From: Planctomycetota bacterium
GTDB taxonomy: Bacteria > Planctomycetota > UBA1135 > JACQFD01
DNA: 64,000 nucleotides
Direction of reading: 5' to 3'
Assembly: GCA_016200225.1 (NCBI GenBank)
Contig: JACQFD010000008.1
Location: 16,433-80,432, forward strand
In this document: positions 26,106 through 47,986 of the stretch, in pieces
How the letters are laid out: each line of letters begins with the position of its first letter
Position numbering within the stretch: position 1 is the stretch's first letter
Notes under the pieces: model-generated
Database searches by the model: none
What the model was told of the DNA's origin: nothing
What the model saw: the letters and a program-made list of their open reading frames with translations, nothing else
Made by a program: the position numbers and the translations under genes

Positions 26106-26157
26106 GTAAAAACAGCGACAGGACCACTTCTGTCCCGCTTTTCTCCCCCCAACCACA

Positions 26158-26394
26158 CCCCATTCCCGTCGATCGCCGGGCTCCGGTTCCGCGCGAGTTC
26201 CGCAGCCGGCTCGAATGCAAACGCTCTGCGTTTGCATTCGCCGGCGAGGACCTGCCGAGCGCCGGAACCGGTCCCGGCGATCGTCAAAAATACATATATT
26301 ATTATTAAAAAAATAATAAGTCCCCGCGGGCTGAGCGAAAAGCCCTCGCGGGCTGAGCGGAAGGCCCTCGCGGGCTGAGCGAAACATTCCCTTC
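26158..26394. repeat. Left copy (R-L) of a ~240 bp direct repeat: long hairpin, AT-rich spacer, 3 tandem 21-22 nt units, stub of aconitase 3' end
   Basis: Near-identical to 37128-37385 (offset 10970). Ends in GCGAAACATTCCCTTC versus GCGAAACATCCCTTC at the aconitase 3' end. Confidence 0.95.
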
Positions 26395-26428
26395 TTATGT
26401 AGAAGTGGACCTATCCCCTTTTTTCCGT

Positions 26429-29047
26429 TCAATTCGTAATGTCAACCTTCAATCCGCGCGACGTAACAATATCGTAAGTTGCCGTCGTGATGGCGCGCCC
26501 GTCGGCGACGCGCTCGACCCAAAGCGATTGAATGTAGAATGTCATTCCGACCAAACCGGGATCGTTGGGAATCGGCGTCGCGGCGTACGCATTTCCCTGT
26601 GCATCGCTATAAATATCAAATAACACAAAGGTCGTCGACATTGCCAGATCTACGTGAATCATTGCGCCGACGCCGAATGCGTCGCTGCCCGCGAAGTCGA
26701 TCACGTCGCCGCCGTAGCCGAGGCCGAGCGAGCTCGCCGGAGCGTTCGTGCATGTTAAATTAAAAGTCATATCATTAATTCTAGGCGAACGCGGCGCGCC
26801 CATGGCGAGGCGCCCCGAAGCGCCGCCCGAGCCGGTTCCGTAATGACTCATTCCAAACGGCTGCGAGCCGGCGTCGAAAATCACGGTGACGTTGTCATTC
26901 GTCGGATTCGCCGTGACGAAATCTACTTTTCCGCGCAACTTGAAATCGGCGCATGCAAGCCCGGCCGGGTTCAGTCCCGTCGAAACCGACGTCGCCGAGG
27001 CCGCTCCAAGCACGCGCCGGATCAACGCACTTCCACCCTCGCTCGTATTGATAAGTTCTCCGATTCCATCGCCCGTAATATCTGTAAGAATTACACCGGT
27101 TGGATTCGCGCCAGCGGGATGGATCGCGGGCGCGCCAAATCCGCCGCCGCCCGCGCCGATGTACAATGCAAGATCATTGGTAGTATACTCGGCCATGACA
27201 ATATCCATGACGCCGTCGCGATTCGCATCGCCCGTCGCGATGGCGACGGGTTTCATGCCCGGGGATAAGTTTAATGACGCAAGCGAGAAGACGCCCGCTC
27301 CCACGTTAATAAGTATATCCATATTGCTCGATCCCGCAAGAATGCCCTCCTCGGCGATGGCCAGATCCGGCAATCCGTCGCCGTTGAAGTCCTGAAGGAG
27401 GATCGCATTGACTTCATTAAAATATGCGTTGTAAACGGGGAGCGCGAATGAACCACCCCCATTGTTCATAATGATTCCGTATCCGGATCCGGTCGGAATC
27501 GGGCCGGCGCCGAGGTCGACATAACCAAAAACAAGATCCGGATCTCCGTCCATGTCGATATCTGAAATAACAATTGAATTCGGCTGGTGAATCAGTGGAA
27601 TCGTGCTAATACCTCCGGTCAATTGTGTGCCGGTTCCATGAATAATCGTCAGCGTGCTTCCGAGGAAATCGGCTGTTACAATATCGAGATTTCGATCGCC
27701 ATTGACGTCGGCGATCGCGAGCGCCCGGGGTCCATTTCCGACAACAGGTACCAATGGAGCCGAAAACCCTCCCGAGCCGTCGCCGAAACGAATCATAACA
27801 TTATTCGAGTTTTCGTTTACAACCGCAAAATCGGGAAAACCGTCCTCGTCGATATCCGCGGTCGCGACCGCGACAGGACTCAAGAATGCCGAAATGATTG
27901 TATCCGATACGACCGGGTCGAGTCCCTGGTTGAATAGTATATTAATGATCCCGTCGATCGCCGGCGTCTCGCCGCAAACGGCCGCGTCGGTCCTTTGATC
28001 GCCGTTCCAATCGGCGAGCGCAATTGCGCGGGGCCGCTGGTTTCCTATATGCATCTCATTCATCGAAAAACCGCCTGATCCGTTATTTTGATAGGCATCG
28101 AGCGTGGCGTCGGTCACCATCGCGCTCGCGTGGTGGCAACTAACAAATACATCCGCGAGGCCGTCGCCGTCGGCGTCGGCCGCCGAAAGCCGCATCGGCT
28201 CCACGTGCGTTGGAACATTATGGATGGCAATCAACAGACCCCCGCCGTTGTTCCCGATCACGCCAAATTGATCGCTCGCCGTTCCGTAACATACCAATAC
28301 TTCGGGCGCCCCGTCGCCCGTCGTGTCAGCCACGAAATGATCGACGGCCGGAAAAGGTAATATAAATATAAATTCCGGGCTGAAGGTCATCGCGGGTCCG
28401 CCTTTGCGCACGGCGACGGCGAGCGGCGCAAGACACACCAAATCGAGTTCGCCGTCGTGATCCAAATCCGCGACTCTTAGTTTTTCAACGCCGACTGCGG
28501 ACGCGTACACGGGCACACCCGCAAGAGTTCCGTTTCCAAAGCCTGTCCAAATCGCAGTGCCGGGGCCGATCCAAATCTCCGCGCAATCGAGATTGCCATT
28601 TTGATCGAAATCGCCCGCCCCGACGCCGCCGGAGGGCCCCGCAACGTGAGATATGCTAAACGTATTTGCTAACATTCCGGCTCCATCCCCGGTGAAAATA
28701 CAGATTTGGTAACCTCCCGACGCGACGGCATCGAGATTGCCATCATTATTATAATCGCCAATTGTAATAAATTGCGGCGTCATCGCGACGGCGGGCGGCG
28801 CAAACGATGGCGGCAGCAGAAGTCCCGTTCCCTGTCCAAGCCGTAACTCAAGCCGCGCCGCAGGCCCGTCGTGCGCCGTTAACAGATCCTCGATTCCATC
28901 ATTATTAAAATCGCCCGCCGCCGCATCCGCCGCGGAATTGTTAGGTCCCGTCCCGTAGGTTTCGGGCTGTGTGTACGTCTGCGCGAGGGCGCTGCCGGAA
29001 AGAACCGCGGAGAGAACGAGGAGGGCAGGGGCTGGGGTTATTCGCAT
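26429..29047 (-). CDS. FG-GAP/VCBS repeat (integrin-alpha-like beta-propeller) secreted protein 1
   Basis: Signal peptide from ATG 29047; more than ten GDFNxDGxxDL-type repeats; C-terminal IPNDPGLVG domain. Confidence 0.9.
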   Translation of the reverse strand: MRITPAPALLVLSAVLSGSALAQTYTQPETYGTGPNNSAADAAAGDFNNDGIEDLLTAHDGPAARLELRLGQGTGLLLPPSFAPPAVAMTPQFITIGDYNNDGNLDAVASGGYQICIFTGDGAGMLANTFSISHVAGPSGGVGAGDFDQNGNLDCAEIWIGPGTAIWTGFGNGTLAGVPVYASAVGVEKLRVADLDHDGELDLVCLAPLAVAVRKGGPAMTFSPEFIFILPFPAVDHFVADTTGDGAPEVLVCYGTASDQFGVIGNNGGGLLIAIHNVPTHVEPMRLSAADADGDGLADVFVSCHHASAMVTDATLDAYQNNGSGGFSMNEMHIGNQRPRAIALADWNGDQRTDAAVCGETPAIDGIINILFNQGLDPVVSDTIISAFLSPVAVATADIDEDGFPDFAVVNENSNNVMIRFGDGSGGFSAPLVPVVGNGPRALAIADVNGDRNLDIVTADFLGSTLTIIHGTGTQLTGGISTIPLIHQPNSIVISDIDMDGDPDLVFGYVDLGAGPIPTGSGYGIIMNNGGGSFALPVYNAYFNEVNAILLQDFNGDGLPDLAIAEEGILAGSSNMDILINVGAGVFSLASLNLSPGMKPVAIATGDANRDGVMDIVMAEYTTNDLALYIGAGGGGFGAPAIHPAGANPTGVILTDITGDGIGELINTSEGGSALIRRVLGAASATSVSTGLNPAGLACADFKLRGKVDFVTANPTNDNVTVIFDAGSQPFGMSHYGTGSGGASGRLAMGAPRSPRINDMTFNLTCTNAPASSLGLGYGGDVIDFAGSDAFGVGAMIHVDLAMSTTFVLFDIYSDAQGNAYAATPIPNDPGLVGMTFYIQSLWVERVADGRAITTATYDIVTSRGLKVDITN

Positions 29048-29168
29048 GGCAATGTACTTGTCGCCGTCCAGAGGGAACATCCATCACGCAATTAACCCCA
29101 AAAACGGAGTCGGGTCCACTTTTGCAGTCGCAGAAGTCGACCTGTCCCCCTTTTCGCCCCCTTTTCGC

Positions 29169-31787
29169 CTAATTCGTAATATCCACCTTCAATCCGCGCG
29201 ATGTGACAATATTGTAAACGGCATTCGTCGTTGCGCGCCCGTTCTCCGCGCGTTCGACCCAGATCGATTGAATATAAAATGTCATCCCGACGAGTCCGGG
29301 ATCATTGGGTATCGGAGTCGCGGCGTACGCGTTGCCCTGCGCATCGCTATAAATATCAAATAATACAAACGATGTCGAACTCATGAGATCGACATGGATC
29401 AGCGCGCCGACGCCAAATGCATCGCTGCCCGCGGAGTCGACCGCGTCGCCGCCAAATCCGACGCCGAGCGAGTTCGCGGGAGCGCCTGTGCAAGTTAAAT
29501 TATAATCCAGATCATTAATTCTCGGCGAACGGATCGCGCCCATCGCGAGCCGCCCCGAGGCGCCGCCCGTGCCGGTTCCGTAGTGACTGATTCCAAACGC
29601 TTGCGAACCGGCGTCAAGGAGAACGGTGGAATTATTACCAATCCTGTTGGCCGTCACAAAGTCTACTTTTCCCCGCGATTTGAAATCGGCGCAGGCGAGC
29701 GCGACGGGCCCTGCGTCGGTGGCAACCGACGTCGCCGTCGCCGCGCCGAGCACACGGCGGATCAATGCATTTCCGCCTTCGCATGTATTGATGCATTCAC
29801 CCATGCCGTCGCCCGTAATATCTGTAATGATCACCGCGCTCGGACCCGCGCCGGCCGGGTAATTCACCGGTGAAAATGGGAACACTCCGCCGCCGAGGCC
29901 CATAAACAAAGACAGTTCATTCGTGTCGTGTTCGGCGACTACAATATCCATGATGCCGTCGCGATTCACGTCTCCCGTCGCAATGGAAACGGCATGAATA
30001 CCCGACGAATCGGAGACTCCGGAAAGCATATATGCGCCGCCGCCCATGTTTATATATATGAGCAACTCCGACTTCACTGCCGCGATGCTCGTACAAACCG
30101 CCACGTCGGACAGTCCATCGCCGTCGAAATCCTGCAGAACGGCCGATTCGCAGGAAATGACCGACGCATAATAAACCGGCGCTCCGAAGACGCCGCCGCC
30201 GCCGTTTAAGATAACTCCAAATCCAGATAATGTCGTGCCGAAAAACGGTACAAACTCAAAATAAGTAAATATAAGATCCGGGTCGCCGTCCATGTCAAGA
30301 TCGGCCACCGCGATGGAATTTGGATGATATGCAACGGCAACCGACACGGAAGCGCCGAAACCGCCGGCGCCGTCGCCAAATATACAAGTAAGCGTGTGGC
30401 TCGCCCAGTCCGCGGTCACCAGGTCAAGATTATGATCACCATTCAAATCCGCGATGGCAAGCCCTCTGGGACCTCCGCCTGTTGCAACCATCGCCGGCGC
30501 GGAGAATCCGCCCGAACCGTTGCTCAAACGGACGGAAATATCATTGGTAGCTTCGTTCGCGATCGCGAAATCGGAGTGGCCATCTTCATTAAGATCTCCC
30601 GTCGCAACGGCGCTCGGACTGCCGCCGCCCGACGCTAACGAAACGGCGTTGACAGGATCGAGCCCTTGCCCAAATACGACTGCAAGGACGCCGACCGCGG
30701 CCAGCGTTTCGCCGCCAATGGTAGCATCGATTCTTCGATCGCCGTTCCAATCCGCGAGCGCGAGGGCGCGGGGCGTATGGCTGCCGATGAGCGTAGTATT
30801 TACAGAAAGTCCGCCCGCGCCGTCGTTTTGATACACATCGAGCGTCGCGTCGCCCACCATCCCGTTTTTGTGGTGACACGTTACAAATAAATCATTCATG
30901 CCGTCGCCGTCGGCGTCGGCCGCGGAGATTCGCATCGGCTCGAGGTTCGACGCATAATTATTGATTGCGACCAACGTTCCCGCGCCGTTGTTTCGAAGGA
31001 CGCTGAATTGGTTTGCCATAAATCCGTAGCATACGAATACTTCCGGGGCGCCGTCGCCCGTGAGATCGGCCGTTCCAAAATCCTCCGCCGGATTGGGTAA
31101 TATAAAGAACTGTTCGGCTCCAAATGTGAATGCGGGACCGCCGTTGCGAACGGAAATCGCCGCCGTGGCCATATCGACGAGATCATCTTCGCCGTCAACG
31201 TTTATGTCGGCGATTCTTAATTTTTGGACGTTGACTCCGGATCCGATAACCGGACCCAATGCCAAAGCGCCCGCGCCATTGCCGGCCCAGATCGCCGTGC
31301 CGGGGCCGATCCAAATCTCGCCGCAGTCCGGGTTTCCATCATGATCGAAATCGGCAGCCGCGACGCCTCCGGTGGCGATCCCCGCGTGGTTGGCGCAGAA
31401 AATACTAACGATCGACCCCGCACCGTTGCCTCGAAACAAACAAATCCCCGTTCCGCCGGACGCGATCGCATCCAGTTTTCCATCATTATCATAATCGCCA
31501 ATTGTTAGAAACGCCGGCGCCATCGCGGCCCCGGGAACCGCGAACGTCGGCGGCAGCAGCAGGCCCGTCCCCTTCCCAAGTCTCAATTCCAGGCGCGCCG
31601 CCGGCCCGTCGTGCGCCGTTAACAAATCCGCGATGCCATCATTATTAAAGTCCCCCGTCGCGGCGTCGGCGGCGGAATTGTTAGGTCCGGTGATATACGA
31701 ATCGGGCGACGTGAACGTCTGCGCAAGCGCGCGGCCGGATTGGATTGCGGGAAAAACCAAGAGCGCGGGGAGGATCAATTTTCGCAT
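29169..31787 (-). CDS. FG-GAP/VCBS repeat secreted protein 2 (tandem paralog of 26429-29047)
   Basis: Colinear with protein 1 over its whole length; same N-terminus (TGPNNSAADAA.GDFNNDGI.DLLTAHDGPAARLELRLG) and same C-terminus (VTSRGLKVDITN). Confidence 0.9.
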   Translation of the reverse strand: MRKLILPALLVFPAIQSGRALAQTFTSPDSYITGPNNSAADAATGDFNNDGIADLLTAHDGPAARLELRLGKGTGLLLPPTFAVPGAAMAPAFLTIGDYDNDGKLDAIASGGTGICLFRGNGAGSIVSIFCANHAGIATGGVAAADFDHDGNPDCGEIWIGPGTAIWAGNGAGALALGPVIGSGVNVQKLRIADINVDGEDDLVDMATAAISVRNGGPAFTFGAEQFFILPNPAEDFGTADLTGDGAPEVFVCYGFMANQFSVLRNNGAGTLVAINNYASNLEPMRISAADADGDGMNDLFVTCHHKNGMVGDATLDVYQNDGAGGLSVNTTLIGSHTPRALALADWNGDRRIDATIGGETLAAVGVLAVVFGQGLDPVNAVSLASGGGSPSAVATGDLNEDGHSDFAIANEATNDISVRLSNGSGGFSAPAMVATGGGPRGLAIADLNGDHNLDLVTADWASHTLTCIFGDGAGGFGASVSVAVAYHPNSIAVADLDMDGDPDLIFTYFEFVPFFGTTLSGFGVILNGGGGVFGAPVYYASVISCESAVLQDFDGDGLSDVAVCTSIAAVKSELLIYINMGGGAYMLSGVSDSSGIHAVSIATGDVNRDGIMDIVVAEHDTNELSLFMGLGGGVFPFSPVNYPAGAGPSAVIITDITGDGMGECINTCEGGNALIRRVLGAATATSVATDAGPVALACADFKSRGKVDFVTANRIGNNSTVLLDAGSQAFGISHYGTGTGGASGRLAMGAIRSPRINDLDYNLTCTGAPANSLGVGFGGDAVDSAGSDAFGVGALIHVDLMSSTSFVLFDIYSDAQGNAYAATPIPNDPGLVGMTFYIQSIWVERAENGRATTNAVYNIVTSRGLKVDITN

Positions 31788-31987
31788 GGCATCTCTCCCA
31801 TCGCCGCCCGGACTTCCGGTCCATCAAGCGAATGGACCCTGGAATCGCCGAACCGGTGGCGTTTGATTTTTGTGGCAAGTCGAAGTCCGCACACCTCGGA
31901 TCGAAAAATCAAAATACGCGCACCGCGGCGCAATGGTTGACCGTCAAACCGTTCTTGCCCATGATCCGTGTCTTGCCAGTGCAAGTC

Positions 31988-32572
31988 ATGGCTCAGCCAA
32001 ATTCAGATACTAATTCCAGCGAACATTTGCCTCCCGCGGACGACGAACCATCCGCGGAACGATTGTGGGGAATTGTATATAATCAACTTCGCGCGGCGGC
32101 ACAATTACAATTAAACAATGAACGCGCGTCGCACACTCTCTCCGCGACGGCGATGGTCCATGAGGCCTATCTGAAACTGGAACAGCAACGCGCCGTCGAC
32201 TGGAAAAATCGCGCGCACTTCTACGCCGCGGCCGTCGAAGCGATGCGTCGATTGTTAATCGATCACGCGCGCCACAAGGCGGCGAAAAAACGCGGCGGCG
32301 CCGAAGCACGCAAGGCGGCACTCGAACTCTCGAGTCTTCCAGATCTTGGCTCCGAGGAACAATCCGCGGGATTCTTGATCCTCGATGAAGCGATTCTCCG
32401 CCTTGGGGAGTTGGATGCACAGGCCGCAGCCGTCGTTCGATTGCGGTACTTCGCCGGTCTGACGATTGAACAGACGGCGGAGACTCTTGGCATCTCGTCG
32501 CCGACGGTGAAACGCATCTGGTCCTTCGCAAGAGGCTGGCTCAAAGAACACATCGAATCGGGGCGAATTTAA
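31988..32572 (+). CDS. ECF sigma factor, TIGR02999-type (kinase-associated)
   Basis: Likely start ATG 31988. VYNQLRAAA...HTLSATAMVHEAYLKL...HFYAAAVEAMRRLLIDHAR...KRGG...LRYFAGLTIEQTAE. Confidence 0.9.
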   Translation: MAQPNSDTNSSEHLPPADDEPSAERLWGIVYNQLRAAAQLQLNNERASHTLSATAMVHEAYLKLEQQRAVDWKNRAHFYAAAVEAMRRLLIDHARHKAAKKRGGAEARKAALELSSLPDLGSEEQSAGFLILDEAILRLGELDAQAAAVVRLRYFAGLTIEQTAETLGISSPTVKRIWSFARGWLKEHIESGRI

Positions 32573-32596: not shown

Positions 32597-35500
32597 ATGA
32601 ACTCCGATCGCGAAATCCAACTGCGGCGAATTTTTAATATCGCTTTTGAATTGCCCATTTCAGAGCGGAGCCTGTATCTCGATAAGGAGTGTCGCGGAGA
32701 TGCGGAGTTGCGGCGCCGGCTCGATGCAATGCTGGCGGCGGCCGGAGAGGGCGTCTTTCTCGCGGATCCAACGCATTCCGGCGCGACGTCGACTCTCGCG
32801 ACACCGCTCAGCGAGTGTCCGGGCACGCGCATCGGAAATTATAAATTATTACAACAAATCGGAGAAGGAGGATTCGGAACTGTATTCATGGCCGAGCAGG
32901 AGACTCCGGTCCGCCGGCGCGTTGCGTTGAAAGTTATCAAACTTGGAATGGACACGCGGCATGTGATCGCGCGCTTCGAGGCGGAGCGGCAGGCGCTTGC
33001 CATGATGGATCATCCGAATATTGCGCGCGTCCTCGACGCCGGCGCCACGGAAAGCGGGCGGCCGTATTTTGTAATGGAACTCGTCAAGGGCGTCCCCATT
33101 ACGGAATATTGCGATCGCAATCATTTAACGGCGCGCGAGCGGCTGGAATTAATGATTCCCGTCTGCCAGGCCGTACAACACGCACATCACAAGGGCATCA
33201 TTCACCGCGACATCAAACCCGCGAATATTTTAGTAACTTTGCACGACGGCAAACCCGTGCCCAAAGTGATCGACTTCGGCATCGCCAAAGCTACAGAACA
33301 CCGATTGACGGCGAAGACGCTCTTTACTGAACACAATGCGTTCATCGGCACTCCCATGTACATGAGTCCCGAGCAGGCGGAGTTAAGCGGACTCGACGTC
33401 GACGCGCGCACCGATGTGTATTCGTTGGGTGTGCTTCTGTATGAATTGCTAACAGGCACGACTCCGTTTCGAAAAGAGGATCTACTCGCGGCGGGTTATC
33501 TTGAAATGCAAAGAATCATTCGCGAAGTGGAGCCGCAGAAACCCAGCACGCGGGTTAGTACACTTGGAGATTCGCTTACAAACGTTGCCGGCCTGCGCAG
33601 AGTCGAGCCGGGGAAACTTGGACTACTTCTTCGCGGCGACATGGACTGGATTGTCATGCGGTGCCTTGAGAAGGACCGCACACGCCGTTACGACACTCCA
33701 ACGAGTCTTGCCGACGATTTGCGGCGTCATCTTGCGGGCGAAGCCGTCGTCGCCGCGCCCCCCAGTGTTAACTATCGAATGCGCAAGTTCATCGCGCGCA
33801 ATCGACGTGTCGTGATCGCCATCAGCGTGATCGCGGCAGTCTTGATATTAGGATTGATCGGCACGAGCACAGGAATGGCGTGGGCGCTGAGCGAAAAGGA
33901 CATCGCGGTTATTGCAAACGCCAACGCACGCAAGGCCGAGTCGATCGCCACCGAGAAAAGTAAAGAAGCGGAAGTACAGCGGAAGAGGGCGGAATATGGT
34001 GTTTACGTTGCTAACATTCAGGCGGCAGACGCGGCTGCGAAGATTGGGGATAGTAGTACATTGAGAGTATTGTTGGATCGATGCAGTCCTGAGTTTCGGG
34101 GGTGGGAGTGGAAGTATCTACAAGCCGCGAGCGACCAGAGCCTGAGCACCATCAGTCTTTTCAAGGCAAACACGAGGATTGTTCCCACTCCGGATCCTAC
34201 GAAAATACTCGCGCTTTGCGGTGGAAATCAGACCATATCATTAGTTTCAACCGAGGACTTTCATACACTATATACGTTGAGTCTGCGCAAAGGCACAACT
34301 CTCTCATGGAAGGGCGATAGTAATGAAAATCCGGAGATTGAAATTTCCCACGATGGCAAACGCTTATGGGCGCATCGTTGGTCCTCGAATACAGGCCCCA
34401 CCCACTTATATGATTTTGCCACAGGACGCGAGATCACCGCATTCCAAAGCGCAGAATTGTCCGCGGAAGAGGCGGTCTTCAGCCCCGATTCGCGTTTTCT
34501 TGCCACGACGGATTGGTTATTAACAATTGCCTCGCTTTGGCGATCGGAAGATGGAAGTCGCGTCGCATCGCCCGACTTTGCACCTGAAAAACCGCGCGGG
34601 AGTGCGTTCTCGGCCGATTCTTCCATCTGGATCGTGGGTACAACCGATGGAATACTACATTTATTTGACTCGGCTCGAGGCGAGCCAATTCGGCAAATTC
34701 AAGCGAGCCGTTACGGTATTGATTTCATGAGTTCAAGTCCGAACGGAAACTACTTTTTCACGGGCTTCGGTAATGGCTCGTTCGCCGTTTGGGATTCGCA
34801 CAATTTCTCAATTGTGTGTCAAGGAACTAATTATACTGGAGTTAGACCTGGAGACTTCTGGAATCGGACGTTGATCGTATGGACGCCAGAGACTGACGGA
34901 TTTGCAAGATTGCTTGCACCGGCAGACTCACGCATGACATTGTTTGAATTGCCTTCCGGGAAAGCAGTTGATCATGCGTGGAAACTCAATGCATTGGAAT
35001 CGCTTCAATTTGCGCCTGACAATGATACATTTGCTGCGATCGAGCACGGCGGGACAAGTCGTTCACAGGCTTTGATGCACACGGCCGGTGAACTCGAGAA
35101 AGAAATGAGTGGTATGCAGTCTTCACTATCCTGCATGTGTCTTAGTCCAGATTCTAAGTATCTGCTCTGCGGTACAGTGGACGGCACGATCCGAATTTGG
35201 GACAGACGGGGCACTCAAGTCCGCACACTCTTGGGACACGCGACTGGAATTGAATCACTTTTTTATCTCGGCGACGGCAAGTCACTGATCTCCTGTGACT
35301 GGAACGGTACTATTAAAATTTGGGATCCCGCCGCAGGCGCTCCGGTGAATCTTGAATTTAGCGAGGATGACGACGGTGAGATCTTTACGGATTTGAAATT
35401 CACTTCGAATGGCAGTCGAATTTTGGGAGGACAGTCTGATGTCGTTCAGATTTGGGATACTCTCTACGGAAAGCAGATTGCAAAATATGATACTTGGATC

Positions 35501-37385: not shown

Positions 37386-39347
37386 GCGATACTCCGAAAT
37401 CCGCCCCTTCACCGCCGACGCCGCGACGCTCATCGGCGATGCTAAATATAATTTTCCGGGACCGGATCGTCCTTGAAAATTACGATTGATCGCGGAAACG
37501 GTGACTTGTTCCCGCGTTTCCGACACGCCGGGGCCGCATCCAATGCACGCGCCGCAGCCGGGATGTATCAATTTGACGCCCATGCGCTCGAACATTTGTG
37601 TATATCCTTTTTCCTTCGCGTAGCGTTCGACGGTTTCGCTTCCGTACTGAATATAAAAATGAACGCCGGGCGCGAGCCGCCGTCCCGCGCGCTCGGCATC
37701 CGCGATGACGGTGGCGTACGCGTCGATGTCGTCGAATTTGCCAGCCGTGCAGGAACCGCCGTACGCGATGTCAATTTTAGTATCCGGCAATTGTGATATT
37801 AATTTTCCATACGTCGGATCGCCGGGCTCGGCGACGCGCGGTTCGATCGCGTCCAGTTCGATGCGATGGACGCCGCCGTCGTAGTGCGCGTCCGCGTCGG
37901 GCCGCACGGCGCGGCGTTTCATCGGCTCGATTTGCGCAGGCGACAGTTTTCTCATGTTCGCGATCCACTCGAACGTCCGTTCGTCGGCCTCGCAAACGCC
38001 GCCCGCCGCCGAACACTCGGTGGCCATGTTCGTGAGCGTCGCGCGCTCGTCCATCGTTAAATTTAATAATCCGGGCCCGCCGAATTCCATCACGCGGTCG
38101 AGCGTGTCCTCGTTTCGCGCGTATTTGTCGAGAATATGTAATATAACATCTTTTGCCATCACGTTGGGCCGGAGTTTTCCGAACAATTCGAAACGGATCG
38201 ATCCGGGCACGCGCACGAACGTGTGTCCGGCATGCGCGAGCCCGGCGTACTCCGTGGCGCCGACGCCCCAACTGAGCGCGTTGCTGCCGCCGCCCATGCA
38301 GGTGTGGCTATCTGTAGCCTGTACAAAATCGCCGGGATTCACAAACTGTTCGCGCGCGACTTGATGACAAATTCCGGGCGAAATGCCGCCGACCGCCGAA
38401 TAATCGCGGCAGCCGGTGTGCCGCTGGAATTCTTTTTGTAAATCGCGCAATGTTTGTATCTGCGCGGCGAACTTCATCATCTTCGCGACGCCGTCGGCAT
38501 AAAGTAAATGATCCTCGAACACCGCGAAATTCCCAGGATTCTTTAACTTATAATCCGCGCCGTACTCCTGACCTAGAAAATAGTGCACTTGCGCCGTCGT
38601 GAATTCGTGGCTGTAACCCGAATCGACGCCGACGAGCACCGAGTCGCCCGGTTTCAAGCAGGCTTTCGCGCCGGCGTCCGCGAGCTGCCCGGGCAGCAGG
38701 TGATTCACGAGTACTTTTTCGGCCATGGTCATCGGCCGCGCCGAATTGTTAATTTTCGGTAATTGTATCTTTCCGGCCGCGAGCGCTTTTGTAAACGGGA
38801 ACAGCCCCCCCTCGCGCAACACAATTTGCGATATCGGATCGTACGGTTTCAAAAACTCGCCGACGGGCACGCGTTCGCCGTTTTGTAAACGTTCGAGAAT
38901 CGCGTGGCCGGCCATCAACTGTCCCTGTTGAATATTGTTACGTTCGTGAATCGGCGCGAAGCTCGCAGCGATCACGATGCGGATCCCGCACCATTTTTCG
39001 CACTGCACGGCCGTCTCACGCGAACTCCCGGTTCCTTTGCGATGGCCGGACACGATCGCCTCAAAATTGCCGTCCATCAGAGCGCGCGTTCCGAAAACGC
39101 GTTCCCCTTTTTCGTCGAGCAGCCCCGCGTACGCGTCGAGCGCGATGTCCTGCGGCCTATAACGAAAACAGACCCACGCGGGCGTCATCACGTCGGTGTT
39201 GATGTCGTCGAGCAGGTCCTCGACGCGCACGTCGCGCATTTTTAAATTTAACTTTCCGGCGAGTTGAGCGCGGATCAATTCCGGATCTTTTGTTAAGAAA
39301 AGAATGCGCTTGCCGGACGCGAGCGTGATAAAATCGGGATGCCGCAT
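37368..39347 (-). CDS. Aconitase-family [4Fe-4S] hydratase; LeuD-like swivel domain fused N-terminal to a LeuC-like domain
   Basis: DDINTD, GSSRE swivel motifs first, then DSHTC, GGSCT, GCGACIG (cluster Cys) and INRNFQGRSG, ASP..VAASA. Start 39347 or 39380. Confidence 0.9.
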   Translation of the reverse strand: MRHPDFITLASGKRILFLTKDPELIRAQLAGKLNLKMRDVRVEDLLDDINTDVMTPAWVCFRYRPQDIALDAYAGLLDEKGERVFGTRALMDGNFEAIVSGHRKGTGSSRETAVQCEKWCGIRIVIAASFAPIHERNNIQQGQLMAGHAILERLQNGERVPVGEFLKPYDPISQIVLREGGLFPFTKALAAGKIQLPKINNSARPMTMAEKVLVNHLLPGQLADAGAKACLKPGDSVLVGVDSGYSHEFTTAQVHYFLGQEYGADYKLKNPGNFAVFEDHLLYADGVAKMMKFAAQIQTLRDLQKEFQRHTGCRDYSAVGGISPGICHQVAREQFVNPGDFVQATDSHTCMGGGSNALSWGVGATEYAGLAHAGHTFVRVPGSIRFELFGKLRPNVMAKDVILHILDKYARNEDTLDRVMEFGGPGLLNLTMDERATLTNMATECSAAGGVCEADERTFEWIANMRKLSPAQIEPMKRRAVRPDADAHYDGGVHRIELDAIEPRVAEPGDPTYGKLISQLPDTKIDIAYGGSCTAGKFDDIDAYATVIADAERAGRRLAPGVHFYIQYGSETVERYAKEKGYTQMFERMGVKLIHPGCGACIGCGPGVSETREQVTVSAINRNFQGRSGPGKLYLASPMSVAASAVKGRISEYREGMFR

Positions 39348-39420
39348 GCGAGGATCATCGTACGCCGAAACCCTAATCACAACATTTCGTCAAACACGAC
39401 GAATCTGCGATTCCCCATTC

Positions 39421-41532: not shown

Positions 41533-41949
41533 TTATGATTTTCGCCTGCGGTAGACGGCTTTCATAATAGTGAAAAAGCCGCCGTCCGGCGTCGGGAGTT
41601 CGATCGTAAATAACAATTCGTCGGGCGTAATTTCGCGCGTCGTTTCCTTTAATTTAGAAACGCCCATGGCCGATTGCATCTCGCCGACAAACGTCATCGT
41701 TTTCGCGCGTTCGTCGAGCGTGCCGGTCATGTTGAGGATCGACGTCGACATCGAATCGACCCAGCAATGCACATATTTTTGCTGCATCATATCAAATCCG
41801 GCGACGCCGTGGCCCGTGAAGGGGCGGCCCGCCATGTCGCCGCGAAAGTCCATCACTTGCCAAAGTCCCCCGCCGGTCATGCGAATGTTCATTTCGCCCG
41901 CCCCGATCATTCTGCACCGGAATCCGCGAAAATATGCGAGACAAATCAC
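41533..41949 (-). pseudogene. DUF1579 family copy A, 5'-degenerate or truncated
   Basis: GGLWQVMDFRGDMAGRPFTGHG...WVDSM matches the DUF1579 gene at 47069. The upstream in-frame sequence (..GPHGDLQS*ISEV..) is interrupted by a stop and has no signal peptide. Confidence 0.6.
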
Positions 41950-42132: not shown

Positions 42133-43692
42133 ATGTCACTATCAAGAATTCTACTAATCATTTCGTGCGTCGTTCTTCTACTCATGAGCGGAAACGCGGT
42201 GGATGCCGCGGTTTTCAGTCCATTTAAACCCGTCGCTGTATTTATATCAAATCAGGTTGGCACGGGCAAGGCCGAGTTGTTTTCAACCAATATTATTGGA
42301 TCACCAGATTTAAATTTATCCGACAATCTCGTAACCGGCGGAAACGTCTCGTCGTTTACGTGGTCTCCGAACCGAAAATCGGTCGGGTTTATCGCCGACA
42401 AGATCACGGATGGTGTTCCCGAATTATTTATAGTTTCCGTGACAGGGAGCGCACTGGTTCGAGTATCTGCGCCCCTTGCCGCCGGCGAGTCCGTGACTCT
42501 TTTTGTATGGTCGCCGAAATCAAATAAGATCGCGTACGCAGTCTCCTCGGCCGGTCACATTTCCGTCCACGTCGTGAATCCCGACGGTTCCGCAAACGTG
42601 AAAGTAGGACAGACGCAATCTGTCAATTCGATCACTGCCGCGAAAGTTGCATTTTCGCCGAAGAGCGATAAATTAATGTTCATGGTCGATAACGATACAT
42701 CGGGAGAGACAGATGTGTTTGTTTGCAACGCCGACGGTTCGAATATTCTTAATATCTCCTCCCCAATGGTCGTCGGCGGCACGTCAGGGGCCGCCGCGTG
42801 GTCCCCGGATTCGAAATTCATCGCATACGTTGCGGACAAACTAATTGATGACAAGTCGGAATTATTCATTTGCAAGCCCGACGGCACCGGAACGCTAAAA
42901 ATGAACGGAACGCTTGTCGCGAATGGTAATATTTCAAGTTTTGCGTTTTCGCCAAATGCGAAAAGCATCGTGTATCGGGCCGATGAAGTGACGGACAATA
43001 TCTTCGAATTGTTTGCGACCAACGTGGACGGAAGCGGAAAGGTAAAGATCTCGCCCGCGCTTTCGGCGACACAGGACGTCGCGAATGTTATCAAATGGTC
43101 GCCGAAAGGCGATCACGTCGCTTATTTTGTCACCGATACGGTTGCTGCAAACCCAACGGGTATATTCGTAGCGAAGCGCGACGGTTCGCAGAATATACAA
43201 ATCAGCCCGCCTGCCAACAAGGCCAAGAGCATCGGCGGAATTGTATGGACAAAGGACTCGAAATCGATCATTTACGAAGCGGATCAGAACGTACTGGGGC
43301 AGCTGGAGTTATTCAGGGCGGCCCGCGACGGCTCGAAGATGACCGATCTCGTGGCAGGCCTTGTGACAACTGGGAGCACGTCTGGATTTAATATATCGCC
43401 AAAGACCGATCGCGTCGCGTTCGCGGCCAGCGAAACGTCGACGGGTCCTGTTGAAGGCTACGTCGTCCGCGCGGACGGCACAAACCTTACAAAAATTTCG
43501 ATTCCGCCGGGTGCGAACAAACTTGTTAAAGCACCGTTCTTCGCGTCAAAGCAAAATCGGATTATTTACAAAGAAGACAATTTGACGGACGGAACCAGCC
43601 TATTGTTTATTTCCAATGCGACGGGAAGCATGATCGAGCTCCTTTCATTCCAAGCGGGATCGGGCTCCGTCGTAAGTTTCGAAGTCGAATAA
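42133..43692 (+). CDS. Secreted TolB/PD40-like beta-propeller protein
   Basis: Signal peptide; about 8 repeats of WSP.(S)K.(I)AY.AD......ELF....DG. Confidence 0.85.
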   Translation: MSLSRILLIISCVVLLLMSGNAVDAAVFSPFKPVAVFISNQVGTGKAELFSTNIIGSPDLNLSDNLVTGGNVSSFTWSPNRKSVGFIADKITDGVPELFIVSVTGSALVRVSAPLAAGESVTLFVWSPKSNKIAYAVSSAGHISVHVVNPDGSANVKVGQTQSVNSITAAKVAFSPKSDKLMFMVDNDTSGETDVFVCNADGSNILNISSPMVVGGTSGAAAWSPDSKFIAYVADKLIDDKSELFICKPDGTGTLKMNGTLVANGNISSFAFSPNAKSIVYRADEVTDNIFELFATNVDGSGKVKISPALSATQDVANVIKWSPKGDHVAYFVTDTVAANPTGIFVAKRDGSQNIQISPPANKAKSIGGIVWTKDSKSIIYEADQNVLGQLELFRAARDGSKMTDLVAGLVTTGSTSGFNISPKTDRVAFAASETSTGPVEGYVVRADGTNLTKISIPPGANKLVKAPFFASKQNRIIYKEDNLTDGTSLLFISNATGSMIELLSFQAGSGSVVSFEVE

Positions 43693-43763: not shown

Positions 43764-44136
43764 CTACTTCCGCCGCGTGTAATCGATCTGTAGCATTTTA
43801 TTCTCGACGCCGAGGTCGATCTCGCTGAGCGTCATCGTTCCCGCGTCGTTCCCGTGATATTGAAAGACGTTTTTGTAATATACGACTTTATTGTTACGCA
43901 TCGGATCGGGCGCCGAAGCATAAGTCGTCATCGTATTGGTCGCCGCGTCATAGGATCCCTCGTACACCGCGCCGATCGGATTCATCGAATCGACGCAGCA
44001 ATGCACATATTTTTGCTGCATCATATCAAATCCGGCGACGCCGTGGCCCGTGAAGGGGCGGCCCGCCATGTCGCCGCGAAAGTCCATCACTTGCCAAAGT
44101 CCCCCGCCGGTCATGCGAATGTTCATTTCGCCCGCC
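43764..44136 (-). pseudogene. DUF1579 copy B, chimeric fragment (middle of copy A joined to 3' half of copy C)
   Basis: 43983-44136 = 41749-41902 (154 bp, 1 mismatch). 43764-43994 = 47069-47299 (231 bp, 3 synonymous mismatches seen). The two tracts overlap in CATCGAATCGAC. Confidence 0.9.
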
Positions 44137-44145: not shown

Positions 44146-46869
44146 CTATTGTACGGTGATTGAAAGGGCGCGTGAACTTACAAGCTGAGAGTCGCCCGCG
44201 CCACAGTTTTCGCCGATCGAAGCGTCCTCGAGAAATATGAATTCGATGTATCTTACGATTCCATGAAGGTTCGGATCATTTGGAATCGCGATGGGCAGGA
44301 ACCCCTGGCCGAATCGATTACAATTCAGCGGACAGGCCGCGAGCCCCGACGAGGCAAAAGGATCCACATATAATAATAGATTAACGAAGAAAAAGTCGGC
44401 GCCGTTTGGATTTGACACATCGCCCAGAATCGCCGCGCCGGCCGCGCCGCGCGGAGCATTGGTTACGTATACGCCAAAAAGTGAATTCCCAACCGTTGGA
44501 AGCGACGCCACGGAGACTCCCATGACTCCGAAACAGCCGGGTGTTGCCGTGCCGATTGGCGATGTGCCGGAGTAGATTGTTTGTATATTCATTAAACTAT
44601 AAATCGTCGACGATCCAAAAAACGCGGCGTCGACGCGGCCGTCGGAATCGAGGTCGCCAAGCGCTGGATAATCCGTAACCAGTGGAGTGGAAATAATACT
44701 TGGAAAGGTGATCGATCCGGATCCATCATTAAGGAATGGCGCGATGACATGCGCTCCGGGAAATCCGATCATCGCATCATTTGAACCGTCTCGATTCAGG
44801 TCGACGCAGAGCAAGCTGCTAATTCCATATGTAACAGCGGGAATTTTTACTGGCGGGCCCGCGAGACCTAATCCGGTATTATAATAAACAAAGAGCTGGA
44901 TCGGATCGACGTTCTGCGCCGACATTAGAAGTAAATCGAACTGCGCGTCGCCATTCAAGTCTACCAATGTAATCGACTGAGGATAGGCCACCGCCGGATC
45001 GACGACCTGTGGAGGCAAAAACGTGCCATTCCCATTGCCGATATAGTAAGAAGTTAAAAAATTGATAATGTCCGCGACTCCATCATTATTGATGTCGCCG
45101 ACGTCAATTTTGAGCGGAGTCGTGGCCGTCGACGCCGGAAGCGACGCCCCCTGCGCAAATGCACCGACGCCATTATTAATATATATTTCGGTGGCCTTTC
45201 GCGCGATGACGAAATCCGGGGAGCCGTCGCCGTTCAAGTCGGACACATGGGTCTCGGCACCTGCGCTGGTTGAAAGGTTTTGATGTGGCTGAATTGTCTG
45301 GGATAATTGAAATGTCCCGCCAGCGCCCCCATGATAGATATTAACAATTTTCTTATCATTCGCCGGAATTATCATATCCAATACACCGTCCAAATTCAAA
45401 TCGGCAACGGCCACGTCGCCAATTCCGGCTGAAGTGAATACTGAAAAATCGGATGTGAATAGAAATCCCCCGACACCGTCGCCATTCAGGATCGTTACTT
45501 TGCTTGCGTTTGCGCACACGTCGTCCAATTTTCCGTCGCCATTGATATCCACAAGTTTTGATATGTAACAAGAACTTGGCGCGGCAAAACTCTGGAAGGC
45601 CGTGAAAAATCCACCCAAGCCGTTGCCCCGCTTGATACCAACCCGATCAATATTAGATTCGGCAAAGACCACGTCCTGTTTGCCGTCGCCGTCGAAATCG
45701 GCCGCGCGCGCACAGACCGATTCAATGAGTGAATCGACGAATACAGGATTCACGGCGCCGCCGTTCCCGTCCCCAATTGTCAGCGTACATCCGCCCGTTG
45801 CAAGATATGTGAGCGGATTTGCCGCGATGAAATCCGCTTTTCCGTCAGCATTATAATCTCCAAGGTCGAGACAATCCGGTGATGCGCCCGAATTGGAATT
45901 AATAATCGTTGGAAACTGACCCTGCCCGTTACCGAGGGCAATTGTAAGGATATGGTTCGGAATCGCCGATATTAAATATATATTCGGTCCCCTCCAGAAA
46001 AAGACAGAATACCCGGAGTAACTGCATCCGACGACCAGGTCTTCATTTCCGTCGAAATTTGCGTCGAGGATCCGCACATTCGACGGCCCAAGCTCGGTTA
46101 TAACTACAAAAAATGGCGGAAATACGCCCGGAGAACTAGCGAGAGAGACTTGAGCTGTCTTGGCGGCAATGTATGGAAGCGGACCTGACGAGGGCGAGGG
46201 AACGAAGCCGACGGATTGGTATTTATTCGTTACGACAAGATCCGGAAGTCCATCGTGATTCAGGTCTCCGGTCGCCGCGTCGGAAGGATAGTAGCCGGCA
46301 AAGAGCTTGGTTGAACTGGTGAACGCGCCAGTGTTATTCGCGAAGGCAATACTAATATCCTGGGTCGATGCCTGCAGGTGGGTTGTCACAACATCGATGA
46401 AACCATCCAGATTCAGGTCGGCCGCCGTGATACTTGACGTGTTTCCGAGAATGATTGGATACGAGGCGCCTTGTGGAAAACCTCCGAGTCCATTTCCTAA
46501 GAATACCGTAAATGCTCCCGATTGGCCGCCCGCGCAAAGGATATCAAGTTTTCCATCTTGATTCATATCGGCCACGGCGATCGGGCCAGGTCCCGTGCTG
46601 ACACTAATATACTTCACGTCAAAGGGCTGGCCGTTTAATTGATTTAAGAGAATCGCGATTGAACCGGTTGGCGTCGATGTTACCAATGTTACGGCGGAAT
46701 CGGGCGCTCCGTCCTGATTGAAGTCCGCCACGACCATCCCGGCGGGACTATTGGAAAGCAGTACACAATCATCCTTAAAGATCCCCTGCGCGTTCGCGCG
46801 CGATAATAACAATACAAAGAGACTAATGAATACGCCCGTCCACGCTGATTGAGTCAAAAGCTGCCGCAT
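44146..46869 (-). CDS. FG-GAP/VCBS repeat secreted protein 3
   Basis: Signal peptide from ATG 46869; ADFNQDGAPD-type repeats; C-terminal ...AIPNDPNLHG...VSSRALSITVQ domain. Confidence 0.9.
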   Translation of the reverse strand: MRQLLTQSAWTGVFISLFVLLLSRANAQGIFKDDCVLLSNSPAGMVVADFNQDGAPDSAVTLVTSTPTGSIAILLNQLNGQPFDVKYISVSTGPGPIAVADMNQDGKLDILCAGGQSGAFTVFLGNGLGGFPQGASYPIILGNTSSITAADLNLDGFIDVVTTHLQASTQDISIAFANNTGAFTSSTKLFAGYYPSDAATGDLNHDGLPDLVVTNKYQSVGFVPSPSSGPLPYIAAKTAQVSLASSPGVFPPFFVVITELGPSNVRILDANFDGNEDLVVGCSYSGYSVFFWRGPNIYLISAIPNHILTIALGNGQGQFPTIINSNSGASPDCLDLGDYNADGKADFIAANPLTYLATGGCTLTIGDGNGGAVNPVFVDSLIESVCARAADFDGDGKQDVVFAESNIDRVGIKRGNGLGGFFTAFQSFAAPSSCYISKLVDINGDGKLDDVCANASKVTILNGDGVGGFLFTSDFSVFTSAGIGDVAVADLNLDGVLDMIIPANDKKIVNIYHGGAGGTFQLSQTIQPHQNLSTSAGAETHVSDLNGDGSPDFVIARKATEIYINNGVGAFAQGASLPASTATTPLKIDVGDINNDGVADIINFLTSYYIGNGNGTFLPPQVVDPAVAYPQSITLVDLNGDAQFDLLLMSAQNVDPIQLFVYYNTGLGLAGPPVKIPAVTYGISSLLCVDLNRDGSNDAMIGFPGAHVIAPFLNDGSGSITFPSIISTPLVTDYPALGDLDSDGRVDAAFFGSSTIYSLMNIQTIYSGTSPIGTATPGCFGVMGVSVASLPTVGNSLFGVYVTNAPRGAAGAAILGDVSNPNGADFFFVNLLLYVDPFASSGLAACPLNCNRFGQGFLPIAIPNDPNLHGIVRYIEFIFLEDASIGENCGAGDSQLVSSRALSITVQ

Positions 46870-47068
46870 CGAATTCGTCCATTGGTTAGCAAACCGACAA
46901 ATGGAACCGGGACACCCTACCCGGGAACGCCTCCCCACGGGGGCCTAAAATAAATTTGCAATGCAGCGCGCCGTTGTCGGGAACGCGGAGAGCCGTTGCC
47001 AGCCGCGCGACCCGAAACCGGTTCGCGCGGCCTTTCAGGCGGCCAGAAACGCAATAATAAATCGAATC

Positions 47069-47695
47069 CTATTTCCGCCGCGTGTAATCGATCTGTAGCA
47101 TTTTATTCTCGACGCCGAGGTCGATCTCGCTGAGCGTCATCGTTCCCGCGTCGTTCCCGTGATATTGAAAAACGTTTTTGTAATATACGACTTTATTGTT
47201 ACGCATCGGATCGGGCGCCGAAGCGTAAGTCGTCATCGTATTGGTCGCCGCGTCATAGGATCCCTCGTACACCGCGCCGATCGGATTCATCGAATCGACC
47301 CAGTATGTTACAAATTTTCCCTTGACCGGATCATAACCATTCAGTCCGTGGCCGGTGAACGGCGTTCCCATGAAATCGCCGCTGAACTCGACCACCTGCC
47401 AGAATCCGCCGGCGGAAGTTTTTCGCGTCTCCATGGCCTTGCTCACCATTTCGGGCGCCGACGGATCGGGGCGCATTTTAATAACTGCGTCCCAGACTCC
47501 GTCGTTTTGTTGTATCATCGCGTGTTGCGGACCCGGCTTCGGCATCGCCGCATCCATGCTCATCGCCATCGACGCGTCCATCGTTGCCATCGCGCCGGAC
47601 GATTTCTTGTCGTTAGTCCCAGACTTGCATGCTACAAATACAAGAAGCCCCGCGGAAATAACGACTGCTTTCAAGGAAGTGTTTTTATTCATCAT
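47069..47695 (-). CDS. DUF1579 family lipoprotein, copy C (intact)
   Basis: Lipobox-like LLVFVA-C; PKPGPQH, GVWD, GGFW, FTGHG..GYDP.K.KFV.YWVDSM. Confidence 0.85.
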   Translation of the reverse strand: MMNKNTSLKAVVISAGLLVFVACKSGTNDKKSSGAMATMDASMAMSMDAAMPKPGPQHAMIQQNDGVWDAVIKMRPDPSAPEMVSKAMETRKTSAGGFWQVVEFSGDFMGTPFTGHGLNGYDPVKGKFVTYWVDSMNPIGAVYEGSYDAATNTMTTYASAPDPMRNNKVVYYKNVFQYHGNDAGTMTLSEIDLGVENKMLQIDYTRRK

Positions 47696-47986
47696 TGGGT
47701 TTACGTAATATAACAAACAGGGTTTTCAGGCGGCCATCGCCCCGCCAATACGGGGCGATCGCGGAACGTCCGGAAATGAATAGCCCGAAATTACGTGTCA
47801 TTCGTCCTCAATACCAACAAAATCGCCCTCTAAAACCCGCATTACTCATGAAGTCTATGAAGATGGCCGACAGTGTGTCGCCAAATGTAAGGCGCGACGA
47901 CGGCGCGACCGAGCACGGTCTCGCCGGAGGAGCAACGCAACAGTTGGCGGCACAATGTGTGGCCAGATTCGTGGAATTCATGAATA

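Follow-up and report, generated by a model that had tools for sequence, protein, structure and literature searches.

A stretch of 64,000 nucleotides from a Planctomycetota bacterium (here called the window) carries two loci at which near-identical direct repeats lie around genes for FG-GAP and PD40 proteins. The host is a groundwater planctomycete with a large genome. The preliminary description saw one design at both loci, with an anchor gene 3' end, cargo, a second copy of that end and further cargo, and tentatively attributed it to cassette arrays growing by an undescribed, recombinase-free mechanism. Do the two loci share an origin, and how did the genes between the repeats arrive? The repeats reported there are real, and the two loci are two different structures. 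At a probability of roughly 55%, both structures are instances, or look-alikes, of a process recurring elsewhere in the genome, in which islets arise by Campbell-type integration and accretion at gene 3' ends. The features of both loci are listed in Table 1.

Table 1. Positions in the window of the genes and repeats at locus 1 (upper eight rows) and locus 2 (lower seven rows); GC percentiles refer to the genome.
Feature	Position	Strand	Remarks
Sigma-70 r2/r4 fused to CarboxypepD_reg repeats, 1284 aa	22251..26105	+	Pfam; left flank, converges on copy A; GC 0.63, 99th percentile
Repeat copy A	26158..26395	+	Hairpin 26168-26284, AT tract ~26285-26320, three 22-nt units 26321-26386, aconitase-derived 17 nt 26378-26395
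FG-GAP/VCBS repeat protein, 883 aa, cargo	26429..29080	-	Pfam; GC 43rd percentile
FG-GAP/VCBS repeat protein, 872 aa	29169..31787	-	Pfam; tandem paralogue of the 26429..29080 gene, ~71-80% nt identity
ECF sigma factor (Sigma70_ECF), cargo	31745..32572	+	Pfam
Ser/Thr protein kinase with WD40 and TPR regions, 1498 aa, cargo	32597..37093	+	Pfam
Repeat copy B, four 22-nt units	37128..37387	+	Last unit extends over the aconitase-family gene's stop codon and final codons
Aconitase-family hydratase, 670 aa, "anchor"	37368..39380	-	Pfam; C-terminus ...EGMFR native by homologue C-termini
dufA, DUF1579	41533..41949	-	Contig lacks ~146 nt between 41902 and 41903
Repeat common to dufA and dufB, copy in dufA	41749..41902	-	Exact run kept, 141 nt
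PD40/DPPIV_N beta-propeller, 519 aa, between dufA and dufB	42133..43692	+	Pfam; GC 1.5-2.6th percentile
dufB, recombinant DUF1579	43764..44126	-	Contig lacks ~121 nt after 44136
FG-GAP/VCBS repeat protein (FG-GAP930), 930 aa, between dufC and dufB	44146..46938	-	Pfam; GC 2-4th percentile
dufC, full-length DUF1579, N-terminal hydrophobic leader	47069..47716	-	215 aa by ORF call, 208 aa in database record
HAD hydrolase	47987..48640	+	Conserved neighbour of DUF1579 pair in same-genus genome

At locus 2 (41.5-47.7 kb), the segment 41749-41902 matched 43983-44136 at 99%, and 43764-~43998 matched 47069-~47303 at 98-99%, the latter match ending exactly at the stop codon. The genes dufA and dufB had been read as DUF1579 3' ends, a reading that did not survive: the locus is a cluster of three complete DUF1579 genes rather than gene-end stubs, and both genes are full length (~161-162 aa). 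They look truncated only because the k=141 assembly dropped 146 and 121 nt, and the joins between 41902 and 41903 and between 44136 and 44137 were absent from read-derived contigs. In dufA, the authentic start codon and roughly 39 initial codons (116 coding nt) fall within the lost part. The exact repeat that dufA and dufB really share is 257 nt long and reaches the start codon, the sequence of the missing segment being covered except for its middle 55 nt, and the true start of dufB lies 14 nt past the stop of FG-GAP930.

The middle gene, dufB, is a true homologous recombinant of the outer genes dufA and dufC. Its 3' 232 nt duplicate the last 232 nt of dufC and its 5' part matches dufA, with a crossover in GTCGATTCGATG near 43983-43998 that was supported by reads through a 61-nt junction contig of depth 10.8. 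In the related genome G001, the HAD, dufC-like and dufA-like genes lie side by side, and no propeller gene separates them. Both propeller genes at this locus are low in GC (about the 2nd-4th percentile, a value that varies with the genome window size). An exact-protein look-up of FG-GAP930 returned no record, and a scan of JGI metagenomes with the HAD protein found distant relatives only.

The assembly signature responsible for the false fragments was visible in the MAG, where exact repeats >142 nt were absent and terminal exact runs spiked at 140-141 nt. Four internal joins had no read support; two of them lie in the window and the other two at an islet on contig C40, whose anchor gene was short by ~34-41 aa when compared with its orthologues. 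Exact runs stayed below 141 nt at the islets on contigs C17, C15 and C22, in the dufB/dufC repeat and at locus 1, and these were thus resolved by the k=141 graph. Where they exceed 141 nt (dufA/dufB, C40 and C12), the assembly is compatible with an integrated block as well as with a separate circle and an empty site. As a practical lesson, this artefact silently removes 55-146 nt at repeats and makes false gene fragments, and repeat-based inference from such assemblies needs read support.

Locus 1 is built differently. The segments 26158-26384 and 37128-37354 are 96% identical over 227 nt, and shifting the alignment by one 22-nt unit extends the match by 17 nt into the aconitase 3' end (26378-26395 vs 37370-37387). 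As copy A holds these 17 nt of the aconitase end, it is a segmental copy of the aconitase-proximal copy B. The repeat is a mosaic of a 117-nt hairpin (dG -120 kcal/mol and z -7.3 in copy A), an AT tract and 22-nt GC-rich mini-palindromes, and its copies A and B bracket 10.7 kb; all four flank junctions were present in Logan contigs. Although it had been described as the aconitase 3' end, only 17 nt of the repeat come from that gene; for the most part it is an intergenic element dispersed through the genome, whose hairpin family has ~22-25 copies here and none in 30 relatives. The hairpin copies carry compensatory changes in both stems. Elsewhere in the genome, convergent genes flank the mosaic, which follows a stop codon immediately on its 3' side; in 16 of 19 copies, 0-9 nt separate the end of the unit array from the stop of a convergent ORF. 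A scan of 20-52 kb against Rfam gave no match at E<=1. The flanks of aconitase homologues on 80 public contigs showed no synteny downstream of the gene, and locus 1 is consequently not polarisable.

The idea of a design common to both loci therefore stood only in part: the layout recurs genome-wide, but joining locus 1 with locus 2 is weak, because the REP/BIME-like element of locus 1 is absent at all other islets and because what were taken for "anchor 3' ends" at locus 2 are whole paralogues that the k=141 artefact shortened. The FG-GAP family occupies 63-97 places in the genome, so that the occurrence of FG-GAP genes at both loci counts for little alone. Likewise, the AT-richness attributed to the propeller cargo was found at locus 2 (PD40 and FG-GAP930) but not at locus 1, where the FG-GAP genes lie at the genome median.

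A genome-wide search for direct repeats overlapping stop codons, which the preliminary description had proposed, yielded more examples on contigs C40, C17, C12, C15 and C22. The recurrent layout consists of a resident gene, AT-rich cargo starting from its stop codon, and then a 120-250-nt copy of the gene 3' end; it was found at at least five further loci (gltX, tRNA-Leu, a GT2 gene and others), where the cargo is rich in FG-GAP, SBBP and PD40 proteins and its GC lies at the 0.4-16th percentile. Of 15 two-copy local repeats, at least 7 had an edge at a stop codon, whereas random intervals gave 0.75%. Repeats at both ends of the insert, including the 3' end of an intact gene, were present at C40, C17, C15, C22 and dufC/dufB; at C12 the whole tRNA-Leu gene and its flanks are duplicated, and at locus 1 the gene portion of the repeat is only 17 nt.

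The islet on C17 is a two-unit array with three repeat copies. Every copy begins at the anchor's stop, and the outer repeat edge is the identical nucleotide for both units. The site is empty in two relatives, G001 and G003, in which the anchor gene directly adjoins a 496-aa gene, whereas 5.1 kb is inserted here, consisting of an FG-GAP pair, R1, an AAA_14/DUF4143 gene and then R0. The adjacent DUF1579 pair of G001 likewise fits an empty site. At gltX, the distal copy derives from this lineage's own gltX and is decaying, and the region downstream of the gene differs in content among relatives. We also considered the cargo of C40 and C17 as copies of one mobile element, which was rejected, as the two are not similar at the DNA level and only one gene shows aa identity, of 30%.

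As stated in the preliminary description, no integrase or transposase is visible around the two loci: Pfam detected no recombinase domain in the large ORFs of 22-50 kb, and PF00589, PF00239 and PF01797 had no match on the window's contig. IntI was absent, with no PF00589 match on contig C26 and none in the window's large ORFs. No integrase was found in, or within 10 kb of, any islet. The further step to a "recombinase-free" and "undescribed" mechanism did not follow, since the genome encodes elsewhere eight tyrosine (PF00589) and two serine (PF00239) recombinases that may act in trans, and att-flanked islands, CIMEs and their accretion show this layout. Tyrosine and serine recombinases do occur on C25, a comparable island. 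A single Y1_Tnp (RAYT-like) gene (C29:35109-35444) was rejected as the mobiliser of the hairpin family, as the palindromes flanking it are unrelated to the locus-1 mosaic. Circular forms, empty-site forms and skip joints were not seen in k=31 Logan contigs, which drop rare variants.

Campbell-type integration followed by accretion at gene 3' ends, in the manner of CIMEs, is the most likely mechanism for these islets. A circular DNA with a copy of the target's 3' end would integrate by a single crossover inside that 3' end, leaving the target gene intact together with a displaced 3' fragment, and repeated use of the same site would build arrays. The crossover could be made by recombinases in trans or by host homologous recombination, and subsequent gene conversion may hold nearby copies near-identical. 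Several observations weigh against this mechanism. Integrases of several specificities would be required for seven different targets whose islets lack one; at 120-330 nt, the repeats far exceed typical att identity, given as about 40 nt in the tycheposon preprint (bioRxiv 10.1101/2020.12.28.424599); circular and empty-site forms did not turn up in the Logan contigs, though rare variants are lost there; most of the locus-1 repeat is outside the gene; and the middle copy at locus 2 is a whole recombinant gene that unequal crossing-over also explains.

Part of this evidence would fit a dedicated, previously undescribed route, independent of recombinases and guided by homology or hairpins, that adds surface-protein cassettes at stop codons and duplicates the anchor 3' end. 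At least six loci with different anchors have no recombinase nearby, the repeat lengths are within the range that RecA-type recombination uses efficiently, the two C17 units share their outer edge, the coincidence of edges with stop codons is far above chance, and beta-propeller proteins are enriched in the cargo. We nevertheless regard this route as unlikely, as the hairpin element occurs at locus 1 only, recombinases exist in trans and on the comparable island C25, and the pattern is indistinguishable from ordinary single-crossover integration or decayed att-flanked islands. The corresponding broad statement is similarly doubtful, namely that the lineage repeatedly captures AT-rich beta-propeller cassettes through one homology-guided crossover, independent of recombinases, in the terminal 120-250 nt of resident genes, with the joint no more than 4 nt from the stop codon, and that the arrays make the cell surface more diverse with neither integrases nor attC.

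Ordinary paralogue and segmental evolution without insertion is decidedly unlikely as the general explanation. Tandem duplication, unequal crossing-over and gene conversion would produce mosaics, and deletions would leave 3' fragments of redundant copies. The gene dufB is exactly the hybrid (5' part from dufA, 3' part from dufC) expected from unequal crossing-over of a tandem dufC-dufA pair such as that in G001, the FG-GAP genes form a widely dispersed family, and tandem paralogues on C20 and C29 keep conserved 3' ends. However, the flanks of dufB match those of neither dufA nor dufC, by which simple unequal crossing-over was also rejected as the whole history of this gene; moreover, the C17 site is empty in relatives, the cargo is low in GC, and 3' fragments of single-copy housekeeping genes (gltX, the tRNA-Leu flank) adjoin unrelated cargo. 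Faulty assembly of a strain-mixed metagenome is highly improbable as the source of the entire pattern: the k=141 signature, the four unsupported joins (those at locus 2 included) and the residues missing from the C40 anchor speak for it, whereas repeat unitigs have ~2x depth against 1x for all flanks and cargo, SNPs distinguish the repeat copies, the runs shorter than 141 nt were resolved, and contigs from two runs cover the dufB crossover and the outer junctions (all four at locus 1, and L-R1 and cargo-R2 at both C40 and C17).

If the islets integrate without recombinases of their own, they would represent a route by which a large-genome planctomycete expands its very large FG-GAP, SBBP and PD40 families, and island accretion at gene ends would extend to long coding-sequence repeats and many targets.

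Among known systems, REP/BIME/REPIN elements of proteobacteria resemble locus 1, whose repeat is extragenic, lies at the 3' ends of convergent genes, combines a long hairpin bearing compensatory changes with arrays of short GC-rich palindromes, and occurs in tens of copies in one genome only. REPIN-RAYT systems have a cognate RAYT gene flanked by the same REPs, whereas the sole Y1 (RAYT-like) gene here is bordered by different palindromes. To our knowledge, an AT tract with a one-sided 22-nt array abutting stop codons is not among the described BIME layouts. The hairpin arms could serve as TIRs of a MITE, but the alignments showed neither a consistent TSD nor a parent element. Integron cassettes share the idea of an array, with promoterless or short cargo units at one site; here IntI is absent, the repeats are direct copies of a neighbouring gene end and not attC, and the cargo units have their own AT-rich upstream regions. 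Paralogous genes such as tufA/tufB evolve in concert by gene conversion or unequal crossing-over, and dufB is likewise a mosaic of two paralogues, with two near-identical blocks that change over abruptly within a short conserved stretch and with identity confined to coding sequence, although unrelated genes lie between the DUF1579 paralogues and their flanks share no homology.

The tycheposons of Prochlorococcus carry tyrosine recombinases and use partial tRNAs of ~40 nt (bioRxiv 10.1101/2020.12.28.424599). As in these and the tRNA-seeded islands of Prochlorococcus, cargo piles up beside a gene, partial gene copies are scattered in the island, newcomers displace older units outward, and C12 sits at tRNA-Leu; unlike in tycheposons, the targets are mostly protein-coding 3' ends, and C12 duplicates a whole tRNA with its flanks and lacks a recombinase. 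There are precedents for att duplication, for CIMEs and for accretion at the 3' ends of genes (PMC5704250; bioRxiv 10.1101/2020.12.28.424599). In both att-flanked islands and the present islets, direct repeats bracket the insert, an intact resident gene ends in one of them, units lack integration genes, and internal repeat copies part successive units (C17). The present islets differ in that a cognate integrase was found for none of the approximately seven targets, in repeats of 120-330 nt instead of tens of nt, and in units of only 1.3-11 kb with mostly beta-propeller genes.

The comparison of the metagenome-assembled genome (MAG; 5.3 Mb in 40 contigs, 93.5% complete) with itself identified 15 two-copy direct repeats of at least 100 nt and at least 90% identity, located 0.5-20 kb apart. 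In at least seven of these pairs, a repeat edge lay no further than 4 nt from the stop codon of the covering open frame, while the corresponding value for random intervals was 0.75%. These results demonstrated that the arrangement proposed in the preliminary description, a resident gene (anchor) whose copied 3' end encloses additional DNA (cargo), is real and recurrent. The three repeat pairs described in the window, positions 16433-80432 of contig C26, were all present in the sequence, and further such loci, here called islets, were found on five other contigs. At C15:107392/108680, C29:46822/47374, C31:60059/61743 and C25:8869/17530, additional direct repeats present in two copies likewise have an edge no more than 7 nt from a stop codon.

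Repeat pairs, islets, recombinase genes and assembly joins in the studied genome (bare coordinates are window positions)
Feature	Coordinates	Repeat	Anchor	Cargo or remarks
Locus 1 pair	26158-26384 vs 37128-37354	96% over 227 nt		
dufA/dufB pair	41749-41902 vs 43983-44136	99%		
dufB/dufC pair	43764-~43998 vs 47069-~47303	98-99%		
C40 islet	C40	true length ~192 nt, 99.4%	GT2 glycosyltransferase	FG-GAP protein; weak TSP3-like match (below curated cut-off)
C17 islet	C17	122 nt, 97.5%	175-aa gene	FG-GAP protein; distant homologue of C40's second gene
C12 islet	C12	>=238 nt, 99.6%	whole tRNA-Leu(GAG) with flanks	two DUF7948/SBBP propeller proteins
C15 islet	C15	~250 nt, 94%	gltX	PD40-like, CarboxypepD_reg-like and one unknown protein
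C22 islet	C22	142 nt, 96%	glycosylase-like (by eye, C-terminal sequence)	DUF5700 peptidase-like protein; unknowns
Recombinase-bearing island	C25:6170-21106			14.6 kb; tyrosine and serine recombinase
Y1 (RAYT/IS200-like) transposase gene, the genome's only one	C29:34467-35444			own flanking palindromes; 54-nt tandem units; neither related to the hairpin family
Artefact joins, window	41902|41903, 44136|44137			
Artefact joins, C40	81025|81026, 84766|84767			
Artefact joins, C12	near 127130, 132901			

The cargo GC content at the genome-wide islets lay in the 0.4-16th percentile. At C17, where all junctions were read-supported, 5.1 kb occupies the place at which two relatives, G001 (same genus) and G003, join the anchor to a 496-aa gene beginning 56-123 nt after it. 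The order is an FG-GAP pair, the repeat copy R1, an AAA_14/DUF4143 gene and a third copy, R0 (52 nt), adjoining the native spacer; C17 is an array of two units, and its three repeat copies have a common outer edge. The edge of the C17 repeat lies at a Tyr codon directly before the stop codon, not at the stop itself. The distal gltX fragment at C15 kept lineage-specific residues and had lost orthologue-conserved ones, indicating that it is derived from the genome's own gltX and is decaying. Three repeats start on the plus strand with TA(C/T)TT(T/C) (gene strand ...AAGTA), at C40:80855/84596, C17:13339/17047 and window 43764/47069, and this edge may be due to chance (Lys before stop) or be a target motif.

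The genes between and around the window repeats encode a sigma-70/CarboxypepD_reg fusion, two tandem FG-GAP proteins, an ECF sigma factor, a Ser/Thr kinase with WD40 and TPR regions, an aconitase-family protein (public homologues of which come mainly from Planctomycetota MAGs), an alpha/beta hydrolase, the DUF1579 proteins DufA, DufB and DufC, a PD40 protein, a third FG-GAP protein and a HAD hydrolase. The domain search detected no recombinase domain among them. The sigma factor and the kinase adjoin each other (31745-37093), and homologous pairs adjoin DUF1579 genes in several relatives (L113, L116 and L118). An ORF of 262 aa at 40463-41251 had no Pfam match.

The groundwater-metagenome runs X1 and X2 contained 97% of the words sampled from 41.4-47.8 kb. 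As these runs may be the data behind the MAG, they were usable as an assembly test, but not as an independent sample. The whole assembly contained no exact repeat longer than 142 nt, and terminal exact runs accumulated at 140-141 nt, mainly at contig ends, a pattern characteristic of a de Bruijn assembly with k=141. Where a contig crosses a repeat, sequence had been dropped at four internal pairs (dufA/dufB, C40, C12 and C6/C28), the MAG lacking 55-146 nt without any mark and retaining exactly 141 nt of each repeat, as in both copies of the dufA/dufB pair. At C40, the reads indicated 55 and 122 missing nt, and orthologues of the anchor have approximately 34-41 additional residues at the deletion point.

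The apparent loss of 5' sequence from dufA and dufB is not genuine. The 60-mers over the two window joins occurred in no listed run, and a 257-nt repeat unitig continued 116 nt beyond 41902/44136 into sequence absent from the MAG. The read contigs for the PD40 and FG-GAP930 genes carried 60 and 35 different nucleotides ahead of 41903 and 44137, respectively, both reading ATGAACATGCTGCTGCCGCAACCCGG..., a start codon, on the gene strand. A homologue of 159 aa (MDITPKPGPAH...), 62% identical to dufB over the aligned 63% of the homologue, fits the restored lengths of 161-162 aa. The observation first presented was confirmed in part: the repeats stood, while the truncations were an assembly artefact.

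The dufB gene is a chimera, with 44136-43983 corresponding to dufA and 43994-43764 to dufC. The switch lies inside a 12-nt stretch common to the three genes and was covered by a 61-nt Logan (read-derived) contig at single-copy depth, and the identity to dufC ends at the stop codon. Stretches common to the DUF1579 genes showed about twice the read depth of their flanks. Unequal crossing-over in a tandem dufC-dufA pair would also explain dufB, and the HAD, dufC-like and dufA-like genes are adjacent in G001 with no propeller genes between them; however, the flanks of dufB do not fit a simple form of this model. A second dispersed palindromic repeat of ~157 nt (47834-47990; at least 13 copies, 77-99% identity, matching both strands) was observed between the divergent dufC and HAD genes, in a region of ~5-fold read depth.

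The locus-1 repeat, located between convergent genes, consists of a 117-nt hairpin (dG -120 kcal/mol, z -7.3), an AT tract, three or four 22-nt GC-rich units and 17 nt of gene. The last part, GAAGGGA(A)TGTTTCGCT, matches after a one-unit register shift and encodes EGMFR, the native C-terminal residues of the aconitase-family protein; as homologues finish ...PGMF(R/A)... at the equivalent position, these codons are part of the gene. Both strands of the genome contained only ~10 matches to the 17 nt with two or fewer edits, making a chance match at this exact spot very unlikely. The hairpin family has about 22-25 copies (74-96% identity), several at contig ends, and was not detected in the 30 relatives searched, including the same-genus genome. 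Alignments showed a conserved mosaic of C-rich module, hairpin, AT tract and an array of 22-24-nt units, with compensatory changes in the apical and basal stems. A convergent ORF of at least 150 aa has its stop codon 0-9 nt from the array end in 16 of 19 copies. The palindromes flanking the Y1 gene differ from this family. A GGAGACGCGGAG-type motif flanks a copy of the hairpin family on C21, and such motifs also occur in an inverted repeat at 48783-49014 (44-nt arms, 84% complementary). Read-derived contigs contained each of the four flank junctions of the locus-1 copies, whose longest common exact stretch was below 141 nt, so that the assembly could resolve them. We read the repeat as a REP/BIME-like element and, because it carries gene sequence, the 26.2 kb copy as a segmental duplicate of the one next to the aconitase-family gene. 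The intervening 10.7 kb had ordinary GC (20th percentile), its FG-GAP genes lying at the median.

Eight genes for tyrosine recombinases, two for serine recombinases and one for a Y1 transposase are present in the genome. Except for the C25 island, the genome-wide search found none of these genes within 10 kb of an islet or anywhere on C26. Direct repeats of 330 nt (94.5%) enclose the C25 island; they comprise only ~8 nt of an adjacent tRNA-like 3' end (by eye) plus downstream flank, and two more copies lie on C17 and C37. The recombinase-free, previously undescribed mechanism initially suggested is unproven, and ten tyrosine and serine recombinases are encoded elsewhere in the genome.

The islet layout is an intact resident gene, an insert starting from its stop codon and a displaced 3'-end copy, with internal copies between successive units. 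A circle integrating by one crossover inside the target 3' end would leave an intact gene and a displaced copy, and reuse of the site would add further units; we infer that the islets probably arose by such single-crossover integration and accretion. Neither circles nor empty-site forms appeared in the k=31 contigs of the runs, contigs of a kind that would drop such rare forms. The two window loci fit this pattern only loosely, as most of the locus-1 repeat is not part of the gene, its REP/BIME-like element occurs at none of the other islets, and dufB, the middle copy of locus 2, is a complete gene of recombinant origin. Integration of this type and accretion by site reuse have been described for tandems of ICEs, IMEs and CIMEs (PMC5704250) and for tRNA-seeded islands (bioRxiv 10.1101/2020.12.28.424599). 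The layout is alike in these systems, whereas the repeat length of 120-330 nt, the many different targets and the lack of integrases in cis are unusual in the islets, a combination that makes both host homologous recombination and trans-acting enzymes possible.
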